From the NCBI GenBank assembly GCA_010015585.1, contig ML975152.1: a stretch of DNA of 64,000 nt. One strand, given 5' to 3'. The notes beneath the pieces were generated by a model. That model was given only the letters and a program-made list of their open reading frames with translations, searched no databases and was not told the DNA's origin. Below, piece by piece: positions 5,314 to 16,900 of this stretch; position 1 is the stretch's first letter, and each line of letters opens with the position of its first letter. This DNA is from Eremomyces bilateralis CBS 781.70. Lineage: Eukaryota. Both the position numbers and the translations under genes were made by a program.

Positions 5314-6421
5314 TCATGCGGTTTCCCCTTCTACACTCTCCCCCTTTGGCTCAAACAAGAACCCACCGTATGGGTTGATGTCCGATTGGTGATTTCGGAG
5401 AAGATAGTTCAGAGCGCTCTGCTCCATCACCACCCTCTTCATCTTCAAAAGGTCCCGGATTTCGACATCCTCGGCCGTGATTAGCTGTCCAGCGGTTTTC
5501 AGCTCCTTAATTCCGAGCGCCAAATTCTTTCTTTCACCTCTTGTAACAAACGTGGACCCTCCGTCATTTCTACCCCAGCCCAATTCTTGGAGAATCTCCC
5601 TGGTCACATCGGTGATATGACCTATCCTCCTGTCGTCTAACTCTCGGAACAGCTGAGCTTCCTTTGAACCGTCTTCACCGAAAGCAAATTCCACGGGGAT
5701 GTCCAAGTGGTCTTGCACCACCACTAATTGGCCCCGTCTAAATCGATAGCTGAGTGCCGTCCGCATGGCAAGATCGTAGATTTTCCTCGGCAGATCGGTG
5801 CTGAAATCTCTCGGCTTCGGGCCGAACGCCACTCCACCACCCCTGAGCATGGGGGATTTCTTATCACCCAATCGTGCTGAGCCAGTTCCCTTCTGTGGAC
5901 GGATTTTCCGACCCGATCCGTGGACTTCGGACCGCCATTTGGTCGAGGCCGTCCCTTGACGGTCGGCGTCGGCTTCGAATACCACGGCGCGGTGCAGAAG
6001 ATCTTTTCGGAGGGGCAAATGGAGGTGAGAGCTAGGATATGACAGGAACTTTATCGGCTCGAGGGTTGGAAAGGCGTAGAGTGTGGTGAGGACATTCGGT
6101 GGGCGGAGATGTTCGGGGACGGGAAAGGCGTTACGCAGGGAGGTGGGAGGCGGAGCGAGGATAGGAGCGTCGTCTTTAAGGGGATTGGACTGTCGCGTCG
6201 GCCTTGGTTGTGATTTGGAAACACCATCGGTGGATTCTATGTTGGTTTGGGCTGCAACGGGTGCTTCCGTCGCAAAGCTTCGGATGGGTATCGTCGTTGC
6301 GGTTCGCTGTTGTTCGTCAGTGGTGGTCGAATACTCAACATCAAGGGCCGTAACAACATACCGGACGACGGATGCAATTACAAGCATCGCGAAGATGTCT
6401 TAATCGAGGTTTCGATGCCAT
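5314..6421 (-). CDS. Mitochondrial large-subunit ribosomal protein uL4m (YmL6-like)
   Basis: RQGTASTKWRSEVHGSGRKIRPQKGTGSARLGDKKSPMLRGGGVAFGPKPRDF is the L4 signature. The true start is probably ATG 6421 (MASKPRLRHLRD, targeting-peptide-like), followed by a GTATGT...CTGAC...CAG intron. Confidence 0.92.
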
Positions 6422-6640
6422 GGTTTGTATTGGAAAACTCCTTACGTTTTGAAGGCTGTTGCGAGTTGTGATGGATGTATCGTGAAGTTGAAATTATTCC
6501 TTGGTCCGAGCGTCTCCTCCAGTTCCCCCAAAAATCTTCCCCAACTTCAGCTATCACTGGGAATAGAGTGTACTCCGGTTACTTTCCTTCTCTATTCCTT
6601 TCTTTTGAAACAAGCGGGTTTCCTTATCTGTTACGGCATT

Positions 6641-7939
6641 ATGTCGATTGCCAGTAGCGCCCAATGCCTTCGTTGTATTGGCCGTACTTCGCTTTCTTCA
6701 TCACGTAGTTCCACATGGAGGGCTTTCTCTAAAGCATCACGACAGGAGGCGTCCCTTAACACAACATCCTCTTCTAGCCCTCCAATCGAGCCTACACTTA
6801 CACGACAAACTTCCACGCCTGTTACATCGACTCCTCTCCAGACCGACCCCTCCGAGTCCACCCGGAGACAAGCTGTTCGAAAAGAACTGAAGGATCCCAT
6901 ACCTTTCGAACAATTACCGTACGAGTGCTTCCAAGAGGCGCGTAAGATATTGCAAGCAGATCGGGAAGAGAAACTCGGGCAAATTGAAATTCAGCGTGGT
7001 CGAATTGCGCGCCTTGTTGAGCAGGATGCCTCTGTTAGCGGAGGGAACGTCGCGAAACGGAAACGGTTGGAAAGCATGCGCCAACGCCTCGAAGAGTTGA
7101 AGATACTGGCCGATATCAATGATCCCCTGGTCAAGAAGCGTTTTGAGGATGGTTTAGGTGAGTAGAACTCAGGTTTCAAAGAGAGATCCTAGCGTTGCTG
7201 ACATGATTCACTTGGAAAAGGTGACATGGACAAGCCGATATACCGACATCTGGCCTACAAGAAATGGATAGCATATAAGCGCAAGGTTGCTATGCAACGC
7301 ATCACGCAGATGAGCGTCATCCCCGACGTCCTACCTTCCATTGAACCCATCCTAGATGTAGACATGAACTTCGACCGTGTACGAGTTCAACCAGGAAACT
7401 TCATCATGTCGACCACCAGCGAACGAACACCCACTTTCAATGTACAGAGTTTCGCTGCGGGAGAGCGGTTATATACCGTTGCAGTCATCGATCCCGACAT
7501 ACCCAACATCGACACGGACAACTTCGATCACAAATGTCTTTTCCTTGCGACAAACGTACCGATTTCACCAACGTCTCCGAAGGTCGACGTCGCAAGCCTC
7601 CCCGACGCCTCCGTCGCGCATAGCTGGCTACCGCCTGTGGCGCAGATGGGCGCCCCCTACCATCGCATATCAGCCTTCATCCTTCGCCAACCCCACGGAA
7701 CCACCATCGACGTGGAGGCTCTCAAGGGTCAATATCCTCGGGATAATCTCTGGCTGAGAGATATGGTGAAAAAGCATAGTTTGCGGCCAATGGGCGTGAC
7801 TATGTTCCGCAGTATGTGGGATGAGGGGACTGATGGTGTGATGGAGAGAGCCGGAATTGAAGGAGTGGATATGGAATTCCAAAGGCCGCCGCCAGAGAAG
7901 TTGCCTTATAAGAAGAAGCCTGGTTGGAAGTTCAGGTGA
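6641..7939 (+). CDS. Mitochondrial large-subunit ribosomal protein mL38 (MrpL35-like, PEBP domain)
   Basis: S/R-rich presequence, then EQLPYECFQEARKIL, DINDPLVKKRFEDGLG|DMDKPIYRHLA and the PEBP motifs IDPDIP and GAPYHR. One intron at about 7158-7220. Confidence 0.9.
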
Positions 7940-8236
7940 ACGTGCCTTGACATAGTTGCGATTGTGATGCAATGTTCGGATACTGTACCATAGTGTAAGA
8001 AAGAACCTGTTACGCAGTCCACGTCCACTTTTCTGCGTTCCTGCACACACCTGGCTATCATGGGACAGCATGGGGGGTTGAGTGTATGACTGCGCCTGAG
8101 CTCTGTCCTGATACTGAACAACTTTGCAAGCCTATTTGTTGATTTACCCTTTAAATTCTCTCGCAATCTATTGTATTTTGAGGTGTCTACCTTCCCGATA
8201 TCGTTTAATACTACGGTACCAAGATCTTGGTATGGT

Positions 8237-8357
8237 TGGATCTCACACGGATTCGAATAACTATCCGGATAGGAATTCTATATCCGTGAATTTCGCGGAT
8301 CGGATATTATCCGGATATGGCTGGTGTATCCACGAACTCGATCCGTGCCGAGCTCTA
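8237..8357. mobile_element. Possible degenerate MITE-like element rich in ATCCG/CGGAT motifs
   Basis: Imperfect terminal inverted repeats (tggatctcacacggattcga / tcgatccgtgccgagctcta) and internal palindromes such as ctatccggatag at 8261-8272. No clear TSD. Confidence 0.35.
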
Positions 8358-8655
8358 GTTGAGATGCTCGCTTTGGAAGTTGTAATATTGTGTCGACAAT
8401 GTGTTTTGGCGTTAGTTCTGCTCTACTTTGCAGCGGGCTACTCTCCAGCAGTGGACAGCCTCAAGGCAGGGTGTTGATCGGCAAGCCTTGCGGATGCATT
8501 CGCCAGTTGAGGATGAACCTCGTCTGGGTACAGACATGAACTCACTCTTAACTGTTCGCATGCGTACATACTGTACACGATAACATGCGCAACGAGAGCG
8601 CAACAATAGCGCAATAGCTGGCAGCAGGAAGACTAATGTCGCTCTCTTTGATACC

Positions 8656-11600
8656 ATGTCAGGCAACAATCAACACATCAGCGGCTTATCTGCAAGCGAT
8701 CATTCTCAGCTCTTCGCTGGTCAGGCCCACGATGTATATGTTGGCAAAAATGAAGGCGAGTCGTGTTTATCTGGCCATGGTCGCAGAACAACAAGAAGCT
8801 AACTGGCAGCCTAGCTCTGAACGTTGTGCTCGACTCGCTGCCTACCGCTGCGGACGCGTCGTTCAACGCATATCAGCGACAACGCGACCGGACCTGCCTT
8901 CCCAATACCCGCGTCGAACTCCTCCGAGATATATACAACTGGGCTGATGGACAAGACGGGCCATATATCTTCTGGCTGAATGGTCTAGCTGGTACAGGAA
9001 AGTCGACGATTGCGCGCACCGTCGCCCGTCGATACTTCGACCTGAAGCGCCTTGGGGCCAGCTTTTTCTTTTCGCGCGGCGGTGGAGATGTCGGCCATGC
9101 AGGCAAGTTCATCACGAGCATTGCGTTACAGCTGGCGAGCAGCATTCCTTCTCTCGGTCAACTTATATGCGAAGCTCTCACGAAGCGCCGCGATATTGCA
9201 AGCCAGTCTCTTCGCGACCAGTGGCAGCAACTCATCGTAAGCCCGCTGTCGAAGTTGGACGAGAGCAGTAGTCTATCCTCGTATGTTCTTGTCGTCGATG
9301 CTCTGGATGAGTGTGACAATGACTACGATATTCGGACCATTATGGACCTTTTGACTGAAGCCCGATCGTCAACGTCAGTTCGATTGCGAGTTTTCCTGAC
9401 GAGCCGACCGGAGGTTCCGATGCGATATGGAATTCACCAGATACCGGAAGATGAACACGAGGATTTAATGCTTCACAACATATCATCCTCTATTGTAGAT
9501 TACGACGTCTCTATTTTCTTCGAGCACAATTTCAAGCTCATTCGGCAGGAACAATCTCTGGACGTAGGCTGGCCGGGCGAAGATGTTATCCGATGCTTGA
9601 TTCAGATTGTAGGTGGATTATTTATTTGGGCCGCAACTGCTTGTCACTACATTCAAGAAGGCCTATTCGCGGACGAAAGAGTACAGACTCTGCTGGAAAG
9701 CAGCACGTCTACCACTACCCCCGAAGAGCATCTCAATGAGCTCTATACTACCGTCCTGAAGGAATCCATTCGGCCGGGATACTCAGTGAAAGAAAAGGAA
9801 GTTTTGTGTGGCATATTACGACATATTCTAGGAAGCATAGTGGTTCTCTTCTCCCCGCTCTCAGCAAATTCCCTTCAGACGCTGCTCGGTGTCACAAAGC
9901 AAAAGATTGATCAGGTGCTAAGGGATCTTCATGCTATTCTGGACATTCCGAAAGTGGATGTCCACCCGATCCATCTGCATCACCCTTCGTTTCGTGACTT
10001 TCTCCTCAACAACAAAAGATGCGAAGATCCGATTTTCTGGGTGGACGAGAAGCAGGCACATCAAGTTTTGGCTGACAGATGTATACAGCTCATGTCGACA
10101 TCACTCAAACAAGACATTTGTGGGGTGGATGCTCCGGGCATGCTTGTAGCCAATATCGAGAGAACTCGGCTTAAGCAGAGCCTTCTTCCCGAAGCCCAAT
10201 ACGCTTGTCGATACTGGATCGATCATATTCGGAGGAGTGGCATCCAGCTCCGCGATAACGGTCAAGTACATCTTTTCTTACAGGAGCATCTTCTTCATTG
10301 GCTCGAGGCTCTTGGGTGGATGGGAAAGGTGTCGGAAGGTATTCATGCTCTCGCGGCTTTAGAATCATTGGTTTCTGTGAGTATACCACTCTAGCAAAAG
10401 TTCTCGCTAACAGCTCGGCTAGTCTAATGGTTGCCCAGATCTTTGGAGCTTTATCCACGACGCGAAGCGCTTCGTCCTCTATAGTCGGCGTGCTATAGAG
10501 CAGGCTCCACTCCAGACGTACTGCAGTGCTCTCGCATTTGCACCGATAAGGAGCATAATAAGAAAACAATTTGCGAGTTGTACATCTAGATGGATACGAA
10601 GGTTGCCAAAGGCCGAGGAGAAATGGAATACATTGCTACAGTTGCTCGAGGGCCATTCGGGCGGGGTCACCGCTGTGGCCTTCTCGCCGGACGGTAAGAC
10701 GCTGGCGTCGGCTTCGGACGACCGCACGGTCAGGCTATGGGACGCTTGGTCGGGCGCCGCACTACAGGTGCTCAAGGGCCATTCGCGACCGGTCACCGCC
10801 GTGGCCTTCTCGCCGGGCGGTAAGACGCTGGCGTCGGCTTCGTGGGACGGCACAGTCAGGCTGTGGGACGCCGGGTTGGGCACCGCATTGCAGACGCTCA
10901 GGGGCGATTCGCTTTGGGTCCGTGCCGTAGCCTTCTCGCCGGACGGCAAGACGCTGGCGTCGGCTTCGGACGAGGTCAAGCTGTGGGACGCCGGGTCGGG
11001 CGCCGCCCTACAGACGCTCAAGGTCCATTCGCGCTGGGTCCGCGCCGTGGCCTTCTCGCCGGACTGTAAGACGCTGGCGTCGGCTTCGGGGAACCGCACG
11101 GTCAAGCTCTGGGACGCCGGGTCGGGCGCCGCCCTGCTAACGCTTAAGGGCCATTCGCGTTCGGTCCGCGCCGTGGCCTTCTCGCCGGACGGCAAGACGC
11201 TGGCGTCAGCTTCGGGAGACCGTACGGTCAAGCTGTGGGACGCCGGGTCGGGCGCCGCCCTACTGACGCTTAAGGGCCATTCGCACTGGGTCCGTACCGT
11301 GGCATTCTCGCCGGACGGTAAGACGCTGGCGTCGGCTTCGGACGACCGTACGGTTAGGCTATGGGACGCTTGGTCGGGCGCTGCACTGCAGACGCTTAAG
11401 AGTTATTCGCATTTGGTTAGCGCCGTAGCCTTCTCGCCGGACGGCAAGACGCTGGCGTCGGCTTCAGGGGACCGTACGGTCGGGCTATGGGACACCGGGC
11501 CGGGCGCCACGCTACAGACACTTAAGGGCTATTCGAGTTCGGTCCGCGCCGTGGCCTTCTCGCCGGACGGTATGACGCTGGCGTCGGCTTCGGGCGACGG

Positions 11601-13320
11601 CACGGTCAAGCTATGTGACGCTGAGTCGGGTACCACGCTGAAGACGCTCAAGGGCCATTCGCGTTCGGTCGTCGCCGTGGCCTTCTCGCCGGACGGCAAG
11701 ACACTAGCGTCGGCTTCAGGGGACCGTACGGTCAAGCTGTGGGGTGCCGGGTCGGGTGCCGCCCTGCAGACGCTCAAGGGCCATTCGCGTTCGGTCAGCG
11801 CCGTGGCCTTCTCGCCGGACGGCAAGACGCTGGCGTCGGCTTCGTGGGACCGCACGGTCAGGCTATGGGACGCCGGGTCGGGCGCCGCATTGCAGACTCT
11901 TAAGGGCCATTCGCGTTCGGTCCGTGCCGTAGCCTTCTCGCCGGACGGTAAGACGCTAACGTCGGCTTCGTGGGACCGCGCGGTCAAGCTGTGGGACGCC
12001 GGGTCGGGCGTCGCGTTACAGACGCTTAAGGGCTATTCGCGTTTGGTCAGCGCCGTGGCCTTCTCGCCGGACGGCAAGACGCTAGCGTCGGCTTCGGACG
12101 ACCGTACTGTTAGGCTGTGGGACGCCGGGTCGGGCGCCGCGCTACATACGCTCGAGGGCCATTCGGGCGGGGTCGATGCCGTTGCCTTCTCGCTGGACGG
12201 TAAGACGCTGGCGTCGGCTTCGGGCGACCGCACGGTTAAGCTATGGGACGCCGGGTCGGGCGCCGCACTGCAGACGCTCGAGGCCCATTCGGGCGGGGTC
12301 GCCGCTGTGGCCTTCTCGCCGGACGGTAAGACGCTGGCGTCGGCTTCGTGGGACCGCACGGTCAGGCTATGGGACGCCGAGTCGGGCGCCGCGCTCAAGG
12401 GCCATTCGCGTTCGGTCAGGGCCGTGGCCTTCTCGCCGGACGGCAAGACACTAGCGTCGGCTTCAGAGGACCGTACGGTCAAGCTGTGGGATACCGGGTC
12501 GGGCGCCGCGCTGCAGACGCTTAAGGGCCATTTAGACTGGGTCCACGCCGTGGCCTTCTCGCCGAACGATAAGACGCTGGCGTCGGCATCCGGGGACGGC
12601 ACGGTTAAGCTATGGGGCGTCGGGTCGGGCGCCGCACTACAGACACTCGACGGCCATTCGCGTTCGGTCAACGCTGTGGCCTTCTCGCCGGACGGTAAGA
12701 TGCTGGTGTCGGCTTCAGAGGACCATACGGTCAAGCTGTGGGATGCCGGGTCGGGGGCCGCGTTGCAGACACTTAAGGGCTATTCGAGTTCGGTCCGCGC
12801 CGTGGCCTTCTCGCCGGACGGTATGACGCTGGCGTCGGCTTCGGGCGACGGCACGGTCAAGCTATGTGACGCTGGGTCGGGTACCACGCTGCAGACGCTC
12901 AAGGGCCATTCGCGTTGGGTCAGCGCCGTGGCCTTCTCGCCGGACAATAAGACGCTGGTGTCGGCTTCGGGGGACGGCACGGTCAGGCTGTGGGACGCCG
13001 GGTCGGGCGCCGCGCTGCAGACGCTCGAGGTTGGCGCCGTCGTTAATACTCTGGCTGTCTCTAATGATGGTTCCTTTCTCCAGACTGACCGGGGATCCGT
13101 ACCAATTCCACCTTTCTCTTTGCCTTCAGATGCTAGAGCTATAGCTAGTTCACAGCTCCCGCCTTCCATTTTTGTCGATGACCAATGGGTAAGTCGCGGT
13201 ACCGAGCGGGTCCTTCGGCTCCCCCCGAAGCATCGGCCAAGCCATATTGCTGTTCATAGGGACACTGTTGCCTTCGGGTTCCAATCTGGAAGAGTTGCGA
13301 TGATGAAATTTGCTTTGTGA
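8656..13320 (+). CDS. NLR-like NACHT-WD40 protein (HET-E/NWD family, about 1519 aa) with an N-terminal amyloid-signalling-like motif
   Basis: Exons 8656-8755, 8815-10376 and 10423-13320. Walker A GLAGTGKST, Walker B VLVVDALDEC, FLTSRPE, HPSFRDFL, LLHWLEAL and FIHDAKRFVLY...APLQTYCSALAFAP, followed by 19 WD40 repeats. Confidence 0.93.
10645..13023 (+). repeat. Tandem array of 19 highly conserved 126-bp WD40 repeat units (two carry in-frame deletions of 6 and 9 bp)
   Basis: Unit consensus LKGHSxxVxAVAFSPDGKTLASASxDxTVKLWDAGSGAALQT, counted directly from the translation. Confidence 0.95.
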
Positions 13321-13699
13321 TATGCTCTGAAGCTTTTCTTCAATCTCCTTCACGCCCACCTCTTTTGCAAATGCTGTCTTTTCATACCGCGTGGAGAGCT
13401 CAGGTGGCGAGAACAATATTTAAATTAGGAACATAAAGGCTTTGAAATCAAATTGTGCCTTAAGGCGATAGCAACTCATGTTAGCAAAGCTGTCAGGACA
13501 CACGAGGGGTGGAACTAGGAAAGTAGCACACGAGTAGCATGCGAGTAGCTGGAGGGTATATTGTCCTTCAGACTTAGACTGATCCTTGGGGAATTAGGAA
13601 TAGTGGGGAGCGGTGAGTGCTATCCGTCGGACGATTCGAGGCTGCAATGGCCGGAAGAGGAAAGCCGGCCATTCTGGCGGTCGACCTACCATCGCAACA

Positions 13700-13930
13700 T
13701 TTACCTTTCGAATCCTCAGAGTTCCATTTCCTCGCATCTGCCTCCGTTTGGTCAACCCTTGCCATCATCAATGAAAATATTATGTAGCTGAGGGTCGCCA
13801 TGAGAAAGACCAGCTTTGGACAACTCATTGTAAGCATCCTTAATTGCATCCAGAGCTAGAGCTCGTTCTGCAGGGGAGAGCTCGTTTAGTGTTTTGCCCC
13901 TTGCTTTTGACATAACGATGCAAAGCAGAT
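13700..13930 (-). pseudogene. Fragment of a protein-kinase-like (APH/RIO/Bud32-type) gene
   Basis: CIVMSKARGKTL...AYNELSKAGLSHGDPQLHNIFIDDGKG contains the HGDxxxxN catalytic loop. It stops immediately afterwards, with no DFG and no N-lobe in frame. Confidence 0.5.
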
Positions 13931-16900
13931 TGTGGAGGGGATCGAGCCATGGTAGCAGATACAGTAACAGAGACAGGTGAAGACAAATGAGATGGAGTGG
14001 CGGAAGATACAGGAGCAGGTGTAGGGATCGCCATAGATACAGGAATTGATACGGTAACTGAGGTGTGTGCTTGTCGTAGGACATCAGCAAGTGTTTGAAC
14101 CGGGGGTTGAGGAGGAGGCTGGAATTGAGGGATAGAAGGCGGTACACACCGTTCAAAAGCTGATAGATCTCGACGAGTTAATGCCTCGTTCCTCCTCGAT
14201 GCACCTCTTGTTTAAGTACGAAGCGGCTCTAGGATATACTAATATGGCCTGGGAGATAGGCGTATTGACCGTCCTTGCACATGTTAATAGCGCCAATGAT
14301 GTCGTAAAGGTGATCCAGTCGTAACGTCGATCTAGATTTCATTACATATCGCAGTGTATGACATTATAGAAGACCGTTCATCTTCTCAAAGAGGCCAGAA
14401 TAAGGATACCCGCTACGAAGTTGACTCTGCTCCTTCTGGCGTAGCGGATCCTGTTGTCTAATTACAGCATTCAATTACCGGTGGCGAGAGGACATTATGA
14501 ATGCCGGGAGGTAGGAATGGCATTGACTCCAATCCGTGCTCGAATTTAACGCCGTGTTTAGAAGAAGCAATCTGCCTCCTGTACTTGTTATATTGGTTTG
14601 ATCTGTGAGAGAAGGAATAGATTAAAACGTTGAAGTTGTCCGAAGAAGATGATATAGGAAACTGGGCTAGGCCCAGTTGAGCGATTAATTTCCATCATTA
14701 TTAGCGCGGGAGGATAATCTCACGCCGCAGTCATCGATATGGTTCCGTACACGTGACTGAGAATGTAGGAAGAATGCAAAACCAGATACGATCTCTCCCT
14801 TTCATTTGTCTCGTTCCCCACATGGGCCTCGCTGAGAGGCCTGACGGGCGTATGAATCTCTCTCTCTCTTCATTTGTCTCGTCTGTAAGTCACCAGGCAA
14901 GTTTCAGAACAGCGTCAACATGTCTGTACCATTACCTGAATAGAGACCTCGTTAAGGCGATTCCATCAATATCCTGCCCATGCACACTTCGCTTGAGGAC
15001 GCATTGTTTTGGACTTTGAACGTCTCCCTGTTGATCACGCCGTTCGGTCTCCCAAATCCTGCCCGCTCGCCCCCAAAAGGATTGAAAAATCCCAGGACAT
15101 TAATAGACGACGGGTACCAGCGTATCCAACAGTCTTCAAACTTGGACCAAACGCACCCGGATGCTATTCGGCTGCTTGCAGAACCCATTACGAAGGCTCT
15201 CCGCTTTGCGAGACTAGCAATCACCAGAATACGATGTTACACAACGGTGCCATCCAGTCTTGTGGGTTCAGGCGAGCAGTCTCTCCGCTCAGTCCAGTGT
15301 CTTCTGCCAGCGATGAGGCAGAACCGCAGAATGTGGTTCATCCTATATTGTCAATGCAGAATCGACTGGCGAGGTGAGCCCCAAGATGATGTCCGGACCT
15401 CGAACGGGCCAACGAAGCGGCGAAGCATTCCATCAAAGGAGATTGCGGTAATGTACCACCATGGTGGTAAGACGGACAGTCCTCGGCTTGGTAATTATCC
15501 TTGCTGGCTGCCCTCCTTCTCAATAGGATCATGGCGGTGCTATGTTGTGCTATGCGATGTAGTAACCCGCGATATTTGATGCCGCTTAATTTTAGGTTAG
15601 TTCAAAGGCATTTCTCTTTTTTTTTCTATGCACAAAGATTCTTTTTCTGTGGTCGGGTTTGAGCCAGCCTGCAGGGCTTGGTCACTCCAAAGATTCCATT
15701 GCATGATTAAAAAGATCAAACGTCTCAGAACCAGGGTTTCAGAATTCAGATTTGTTATTTGAGCACAGAGCATCTCATTTTCGTCTGAAGAGCACGTCTT
15801 GCGAAAGGTGGTATTCGATATTGTTCTATCCTTGTCAAATCTCAGCATATGAATGGTGATTTGAGAACCTGGTTTTCTAAGTCTCAGTTCCGAAGTACCT
15901 CAACAGCTTGCCTATATGCTGTACTACATTATTGCTTCTGCAGCTAGCGATTGGAGTGCATATCCTAGGCGCCACTCGCTCCTTCGACAGGCCTGTCTAG
16001 TTTTGATGACTTCACATGGATTCGAACATCATCACTTCGTCTAGACATACGACATCGTTTAATGGGGTCCAACAAATTCCTTTGCACTGGATTCGCTACG
16101 GTAGCGCTGGAGCAAATGTTGACAGACGGTCACTCAAGATGTGCTCGAGCCACCGCCCGAGATGAGTTTTATTCACAACTGCTACCGTTTCCAGGATCCT
16201 CGCTGCAATGGCCTGTAGTGTATGCTCTGTGTGTCGTTCATATGGACCGGAATTCCAATTATTGAAGTGCAGATGGTACGAGTCCCCAGCATTATCTTTT
16301 TTACAGCCTTGTCATCGATCCCATGTTCAAGTCAAGTGAACCGCTATTGGTTGACGTTTCATCTCAAGTTCTTCCTCGAGCACGGGCTGCCTCCTCAATG
16401 CGCTGCCTGGTGAACGAGGAACGGGCAGTTAGCTTGACCATTCTTGTTGACAGTTGATTGCGTCTTTAAAAGAGTCTCTGCATCATTATGGTGCTTGTCG
16501 CCCGGTTACACAGATACCACCCTTTATAAAGGTAAATGTGCTCGTGCTGAGATATAGACCAATCGTGCCAGACTCCCGGACGAAGGTCCTATAAACGAGC
16601 TGTTTGATATTCATGGCCAGGCTTCTTCCTCGTCCTTGAAGTCAGACCCCGCCTCATCTGTTCTTTTTCTATTGATGTTTGGCGTTTCTTCGAGACATAG
16701 GAGGTCTCTAGCATGTCCGAAGCAGTCGTTTATATCAATCATTCGCTGTCCATTTCTTGTTTATTGTCGATATTTGAGCCAGTGGAGGTAACGAGAGTTC
16801 TCACATAAATCAAGTCTGGATACTCGCCGATCATACCCGTCTCAGGTCGATTTACACCAGCATCCTACTACGAACTATCGAACGAACATTGGAGAAAAAG

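Follow-up and report, generated by a model that had tools for sequence, protein, structure and literature searches.

A first exon that probably supplies an HRAM2-type amyloid motif to a NACHT-WD40 NOD-like receptor of Eremomyces bilateralis

What does a first exon of only 100 bases contribute to a large fungal receptor? This question is raised by a gene in a 64,000-nt stretch of contig ML975152.1 of Eremomyces bilateralis CBS 781.70 (hereafter the window, to whose positions all coordinates refer). The gene, at 8656-13320 on the plus strand, consists of three exons and encodes a NOD-like receptor (NLR) with a NACHT module and WD40 repeats. An earlier note, made from the sequence alone, had proposed that its first exon carries an N-terminal amyloid-signalling motif related to that of HET-s. 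Here, we show that this exon is spliced onto the NACHT exon, and we conclude that it probably provides the NACHT-WD40 NLR with a single 21-residue copy (r0) of the HET-s-related amyloid motif (HRAM), belonging to subfamily HRAM2.

We consider it practically certain that exon 1 and its splice are real. The start codon at 8656 lies in an ACCATG context downstream of an in-frame stop at 8581, and the frame translates to MSGNNQHISGLSASDHSQLFAGQAHDVYVGKNE before entering GCGAGT; start, context, stop and peptide are all as the earlier note had described them from the sequence and the list of open reading frames (ORFs). For transcript evidence we used the public run X1, which is labelled 'RNA?' and contains 94% of the sampled words, and compared its contigs with the window over 7000-14500. 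Because these contigs skip three GT/GC..AG introns, we treated the run as RNA-derived. One contig (record 2, depth 106) spans 8295-8753 and resumes at 8813-9124, skipping 59 bases; two letters at the joint fit both sides, so that it can be read as 8755^8815 with GC..AG ends. The depth of this contig equals that of the NACHT exon, and X1 contigs also join 10376^10423 with GT..AG ends. Translation by script of 8656-8755, 8815-10376 and 10423-13317 gave 1519 amino acids identical to the public protein P0003 (KAF1814946.1 / XP_033536577.1, 'WD40 repeat-like protein', Eremomyces bilateralis CBS 781.70). The junction between exon 1 and the NACHT exon, for which an RNA check had been called for, is thus borne out both by the contig joint and by identity to a public protein. 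Because P0003 includes exon 1, the exon is missing from a plain ORF list only and not from public annotation, and the description of it as hidden is not supported.

The NACHT frame itself also argues for an exon upstream. It opens at 8754, and from its upstream stop to the Walker A region it encodes no methionine; a complete NACHT protein therefore needs an upstream exon. A protein search with a 48-residue read-through of the exon 1 frame matched only P0003 itself (2 candidates). An alternative frame-keeping GT-AG intron at 8760-8809 was considered and rejected, being used by neither the RNA contig nor the public protein. In the metagenome loci L001 and L003, which hold relatives of the receptor, the counterpart of intron 1 (near 10094-10153) has the same position and the same phase, with a GT donor where the window has GC. 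Given that position and phase are kept in such distant relatives, the motif is encoded by a small exon of its own. The receptor gene is, in sum, transcribed and correctly spliced.

Within the exon 1 peptide, residues 4-24 follow the general pattern published for HRAMs: a 21-residue unit with glycine at position 19, hydrophobic residues at 5, 8, 10, 16 and 18, and N, Q or H at position 3 depending on the subfamily (PMC4518210). In the window peptide these positions are I5, L8, A10, L16, A18 and G19, and the register in which the earlier note had aligned it with HET-s repeat R1 coincides with the published numbering. The pattern was reached by 16 of 20000 shuffles of the peptide and occurs at 5 of 65472 six-frame window positions, residues 4-24 being one of them. 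A leave-one-out profile built from 10 other N-termini scored the window peptide at 64.5 bits, compared to a mean of 0.2 and a maximum of 12.9 among 2000 shuffles (real score reached in 0/2000), so that the motif clearly exceeds shuffled controls. Among the N-termini in this profile are r0 strings that are also printed in the supplement of PMC4518210. A second profile, built solely from 7 distinct 21-mers of the effector proteins described below, gave 11.4 bits in an ungapped match over residues 5-22, with a maximum of 6.9 among shuffles (again 0/2000). The protein, which has NPHP3_N/NACHT and WD40 domains, carries the motif once, from residue 4 on; most HRAM copies of a 2022 survey sit at positions 5-9 (PMC9815663). 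Published r0 copies are reported to contain many S and H residues but few D, E or K, and the window r0 contains 5 S, 2 H, 1 D and neither E nor K. The core of the PP motif (G-hydrophobic-Q-hydrophobic-G) is not present in the 33 residues of exon 1, nor, by eye, is the PUASM pattern FxGxGxQxxGxGxF in the peptide. Sequence and context thus support the idea that this NACHT-WD40 NLR bears one HET-s-related amyloid-signalling copy at its N-terminus, and also the accompanying claim that the receptor has no other N-terminal effector domain.

Judged by sequence comparison, residues 4-24 are conserved at NLR N-termini across several ascomycete classes. We compiled the best 120 of 2279 NACHT homologues, a list that includes the window protein itself, and found the motif at the start of 5 of the 119 others: P0004 (Phaeosphaeriaceae), P0009 (Sarcosagium), P0013 and P0022 (both Agyrium) and P0083 (Cadophora). 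Profile A1, made from six N-termini, yielded 5 further proteins, including P0124 and P0125. Profile A2, made from eleven, matched 27 proteins at E<=0.001 among 1.84 billion representatives; the 18 of these that were inspected are mostly motif-bearing N-terminal fragments, and 7 of the 27 show 6-12 repeated partial matches each. Together, homologues and profile matches show that some related NLRs keep the motif, as the earlier note's reading implied. Its carriers include P0152 (Monosporascus), a NACHT-ankyrin NLR, and P0127, whose downstream sequence presumably resembles an NB-ARC-type P-loop start and gave no Pfam match. Glutamine at position 3 of the motif (Q6 of the protein) is invariant in all 11 rows of alignment A2. 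The 21-mer is followed by a tail, [DS]V[YH][FIV]G, in the NLR relatives, and by NV[DN][MIL] after the second motif copy (r2) in the effectors.

The same family of receptors shows considerable variety at its N-termini. Among P0003-P0122, NACHT modules that are 55-68% identical bear the window motif, HRAM1-like or PP-like N-termini, or long ones with HET (PF06985) or PNP_UDP (PF01048) according to precomputed Pfam lists; the sister NLRs P0100 and P0106 carry the PP pentad. Going by these sequences, such mixed N-termini on related NACHT modules suggest frequent swapping of the signalling end. Separately, the 103-residue metagenome protein P0133 has an r0-type motif directly after what we take to be a HET-domain start, for which Pfam gave no such match; the gene call, made on a 1.7-kb contig, may be chimeric, or the fusion may be real.

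To which subfamily does the motif belong? We find that residues 4-24 are very probably an HRAM2 r0. Supplement 2 of Daskalov, Dyrka and Saupe 2015 (PMC4518210) tabulates r0 and the two effector copies, r1 and r2, of HeLo-related proteins. One of its r0 strings, NSQSISGLSATVNSTLLAGQF, is identical to part of P0083, another, NNQSISGLSATVNSTLLAGHF, is identical to part of both P0124 and P0125, and Cochliobolus and Penicillium relatives are included as well. According to the same paper, Q at position 3 marks HRAM2, and two members of this subfamily are entered for Cadophora in its Table 1; the supplement has exactly 2 Cadophora rows, both of the window-motif type. On the strength of Q3 and this matching count we assigned the family and the window r0 to HRAM2, a label that we infer in this way since the supplement has no group column. 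The motif family is thus already published, and with this receptor a known system gains a further member; no new system is involved. The strain itself does not occur in the PMC4518210 supplement or in the searched parts of the supplements to the 2022 survey.

The earlier note had instead suggested either a HELLF/HRAM5-like subclass or a new variant. The latter is contradicted by the r0 strings of relatives already printed in the PMC4518210 supplement. The former has some basis: the motif has Q at its first position and G-Q near its end, and under a looser clustering cut-off the subfamilies HRAM2 and HRAM5 fall together in one supergroup (PMC4518210), so that the guess was a close one. However, HELLF, the HRAM5 example, is characterized by QxFG at positions 1-4 and QG(Q/I) at positions 16-18 (10.1101/2020.07.06.188508), and at these positions the window motif reads QHIS and AGQ, while its Q3 points to HRAM2. 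In addition, the nearest printed r0 strings, 13/21 identical to the window motif for each of two by our own count, are among those we assign to HRAM2. A HELLF/FNT1-type copy, or a new HRAM variant, is therefore highly improbable. Naming in the literature is inconsistent here, as the Podospora HeLo-like motif is called HRAM4 in PMC4518210 and HRAM5 in PMC5485727 and 10.1101/2020.07.06.188508.

The automated 2022 survey labels the Cadophora protein PVH69237.1 'noasm', although the PMC4518210 supplement gives its r0. In the same survey (PMC9815663), PVH69237.1 falls in N-terminal cluster POR31696 together with Fusarium NLRs that carry an unassigned motif, NLR34, at positions 5-32. NLR34 occurs mostly in Fusarium and may be a Fusarium form of the same motif.

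Effectors with further copies lie beside relatives of the receptor in the metagenome. A scan of metagenome contigs with profile A2 gave 5 loci, and 4 of these (L001-L004) have a minus-strand HeLo-like frame, head-to-head with the NLR, that ends in two 21-residue motif copies. In L003, the effector P0161 is a single uninterrupted ORF of 314 aa whose start lies ~314 bp from the NLR start (own count). Its Pfam matches are PigL_N (PF17111; 1.9e-22), which we take to be the former HeLo-like N-terminal family, and SesA (4.1e-06). Its two copies, r1 (TGQKIKGIKATNDGVALAGFI) and r2 (MNQDISDVSADSRGFVVAGVV), are separated by 8 residues, and another protein, P0143 (166 aa), ends in the same two motif copies.

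A number of observations weigh against the reading of exon 1 as an HRAM2 r0 and have to be set beside this evidence. Position 15 of the motif is Q, where HRAMs prefer R or K; this is described as a preference and not a rule, and r0 copies are reported with fewer charged residues. Pfam, whose models include the HET-s prion domain and sigma/SesB, returned zero families for the peptide at E<=10 and hence no HET-s, sigma or SesB model. It likewise gave no HET-s prion-domain match for the effector P0161 at E<=1. Pfam-based methods recover about half of the instances found by the 2022 survey's own profiles (PMC9815663). Family profile A2 retrieved no HET-s or HELLF chain from PDB, and neither did a control profile, A3, made from the HRAM1-like N-termini of sister NLRs; P0161 compared with PDB sequences also found no HET-s or HELLF chain, and hhalign aligned A2 with A3 at a probability of 1.5%. 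Because the control profile A3 also failed in PDB, the PDB and hhalign tests have little power. Finally, our full-text literature search, within the texts it covered, found no HRAM2 experiment.

The lack of a profile link to HET-s and of an HRAM2 experiment would also be in keeping with a different idea, namely that the N-terminal peptide is conserved not as an amyloid motif but as a short linear signal of another kind, directing for instance turnover or localisation. We regard this as very unlikely: the same 21-residue pattern stands in tandem at the C-terminus of HeLo-like proteins encoded beside NLRs, this tandem-copy arrangement is that of the proven HET-S/NWD2 and HELLF/FNT1 pairs, and published co-variance supports in-register stacking (PMC4518210).

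The remaining adverse points concern the partner. Throughout the 64-kb window, blastp-short and profile scans covering the six frames found no second motif copy, tblastn with P0161 found no HeLo-like gene (best E 4.4), and none of 23 long window ORFs has a Pfam match to HeLo, HeLo-like or SesA. The neighbours in the window are ordinary genes, coding for ribosomal L4, a PEBP-family protein, MFS transporters and a short-chain dehydrogenase. Among the metagenome loci, the effector frames of L001 (8701-9655) and L004 (8703-9661), both on the minus strand, are interrupted, and r2 of L004 is short by one residue; the interruptions are either effector decay or sequencing error. As L002 is moreover almost identical to L003, these loci amount to one independent intact pair, in addition to the published ones.

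Since the partner of the E. bilateralis receptor does not adjoin it, it would lie elsewhere in the genome or have been lost. One explanation, which we consider unlikely, is that the motif is an orphan or relic r0 whose effector is gone, the tail being silent or having another role such as stabilising NLR oligomers. The empty window would fit this explanation, as would the interrupted frames of L001 and L004, which suggest that such pairs decay, and a section heading of the 2022 survey raises the possibility that some motif copies serve as scaffolds. Against it, the peptide retains every core position of the pattern, and the gene carrying it is transcribed and correctly spliced. Furthermore, an adjacent NLR gene is in print for 98/155 effectors, and unlinked pairs are therefore common. 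A related and similarly doubtful proposal is that of an unlinked HRAM2 r0 whose HeLo-like partner is distant or gone, and which either signals in trans across the genome or has a role that needs no partner. If this were true, the conserved [DS]V[YH][FIV]G segment after the 21-mer of the NLRs, mirrored by NV[DN][MIL] after r2 of the effectors, would add a structural element absent from HET-s, and the HRAM2 fold would differ from the solved HET-s and HELLF solenoids.

Under the reading that we favor, a NACHT-WD40 NLR with an HRAM2 r0 encoded by its first exon, the mechanism may be pictured by analogy with NWD2/HET-S and FNT1/HELLF. A ligand sensed by the WD40 array would drive oligomerisation of the NACHT modules, oligomerisation would gather the r0 tails, and the gathered tails would fold into an amyloid rung resembling that of a beta-solenoid. 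That the motif folds as amyloid, acts as a template and leads to cell death, and that E. bilateralis has a partner at all, is presumed from these analogous systems; we consider it somewhat more likely than not that the receptor signals through amyloid to a HeLo-like partner in E. bilateralis. The locus contributes an HRAM2-type receptor that is transcribed and spliced correctly, in an ascomycete that has received little study. Such motifs are easily missed, as is clear from the blank Pfam result and the 'noasm' label of PVH69237.1, and in a gene model without this exon of 100 bases the motif would go entirely unseen. Any HRAM2 member, the window receptor included, could be used to ask whether folding and templating in the subfamily resemble those of HET-s and HELLF.

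The features of the receptor gene and its leader are collected in Table 1. The upstream ATG listed there would, if it lies within the transcript, open a 41-codon upstream ORF that overlaps the main start in the spliced sequence. In all, nine upstream ATGs lie at 8317-8638 inside RNA contig coverage, which does not mark the 5' end of the transcript; eight of them are at 8317-8585. The next gene upstream (6404-7939, plus strand) has a Pfam PBP match (phosphatidylethanolamine-binding family), a GT..AG intron at ~7156-7218 and a higher RNA depth, and near 8295-8324 its RNA contig meets the one covering the NLR. At the other end of the receptor gene, the WD40 region contains a 126-base tandem array (10644-13030; 19.1 copies, 82% matches; Tandem Repeats Finder). 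High internal repeat conservation of this kind is typical of the rapidly diversifying sensor repeats of fungal NLRs. An RNA joint at 12291^12538 was rejected as an intron, as it represents a collapse of the contig inside this array.

Table 1. Features of the NLR gene and the sequence preceding it, in window positions
Feature	Position	Strand	Basis
Stop codon in frame, 5' of the start codon	8581..8583	+	ORF list and sequence
Upstream ATG, other frame, weak context (C at -3), 20 bases before the start codon	8636..8638	+	Script on spliced sequence
Exon 1 (start codon, 33 codons and first base of codon 34)	8656..8755	+	RNA contig joint; identity to P0003
r0 copy of the HET-s-related amyloid motif, residues 4-24, NNQHISGLSASDHSQLFAGQA; very probably HRAM2	8665..8727	+	Pattern test, profiles, published r0 lists
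Conserved tail HDVYVGKNE after the 21-mer	8728..8754	+	Alignments A1 and A2; effector sequences
Intron 1, 59 bases, GC donor (GCGAGT), CTAAC branch site, AG acceptor, phase 1	8756..8814	+	RNA contig, spliced translation
Exon 2, linker and NACHT/NPHP3_N NTPase module	8815..10376	+	Pfam NPHP3_N 1.6e-30, NACHT 4e-06; RNA joint at 10376
Intron 2, 46 bases, GT..AG	10377..10422	+	RNA contig joint
Exon 3, WD40 repeat sensor region and stop codon	10423..13320	+	Pfam WD40, 19 stretches

Compared with known systems, the receptor resembles NWD2/HET-S of Podospora anserina (HRAM1) in that NWD2 likewise carries a single r0 on a NACHT-WD40 NLR, from which a likeness in mechanism is presumed (PMC4518210). 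The HET-S effector has two 21-residue pseudo-repeats that form a beta-solenoid (PMC4518210). The two systems differ in that NWD2/HET-S has N at position 3 where the window motif has Q, and in that the HET-S effector has a HeLo domain whereas the effectors of the window-motif relatives are HeLo-like. Profile similarity between HET-s and the window family is not detectable by Pfam, PDB or hhalign, in a comparison where the PDB control also failed. In FNT1/HELLF, also of Podospora anserina (HRAM5), the effector HELLF is a HeLo-like protein with two pseudo-repeats and an adjacent r0 NLR (10.1101/2020.07.06.188508). HELLF is a proven prion and shares with the window motif the Q at the first motif position (10.1101/2020.07.06.188508), while the FNT1/HELLF sub-motifs QxFG and QG(Q/I) are missing from the latter.

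The closest parallels are the HRAM2 pairs, in which the relatives have a HeLo-like partner whose r1 and r2 are split by an 8-residue loop; unlike the published pairs, the window receptor has no adjoining partner gene. The HRAM2 example of a review is the Penicillium roqueforti pair W6Q0M1 / W6PZN6 (PMC5485727). A row of PMC4518210 with a CDM accession, which judging from the accession style only may be the same pair, gives the r0 ITQHISGVNAESGGKVFAGYV; it shares the Q-H-I-S-G start and F-A-G with the window motif and differs in the middle (ESGGK versus SDHSQ). Another example is the Cadophora pair jgi_Cadsp1_474010 / PVH69237.1 (PMC4518210), which shares with the window motif Q3, I5, [LV]8, A10, hydrophobic residues at 16 and 18, and G19. 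Its NLR, likewise a NACHT-WD40 protein, has the r0 at its extreme N-terminus and is 55% identical to the window protein over residues 1-560.

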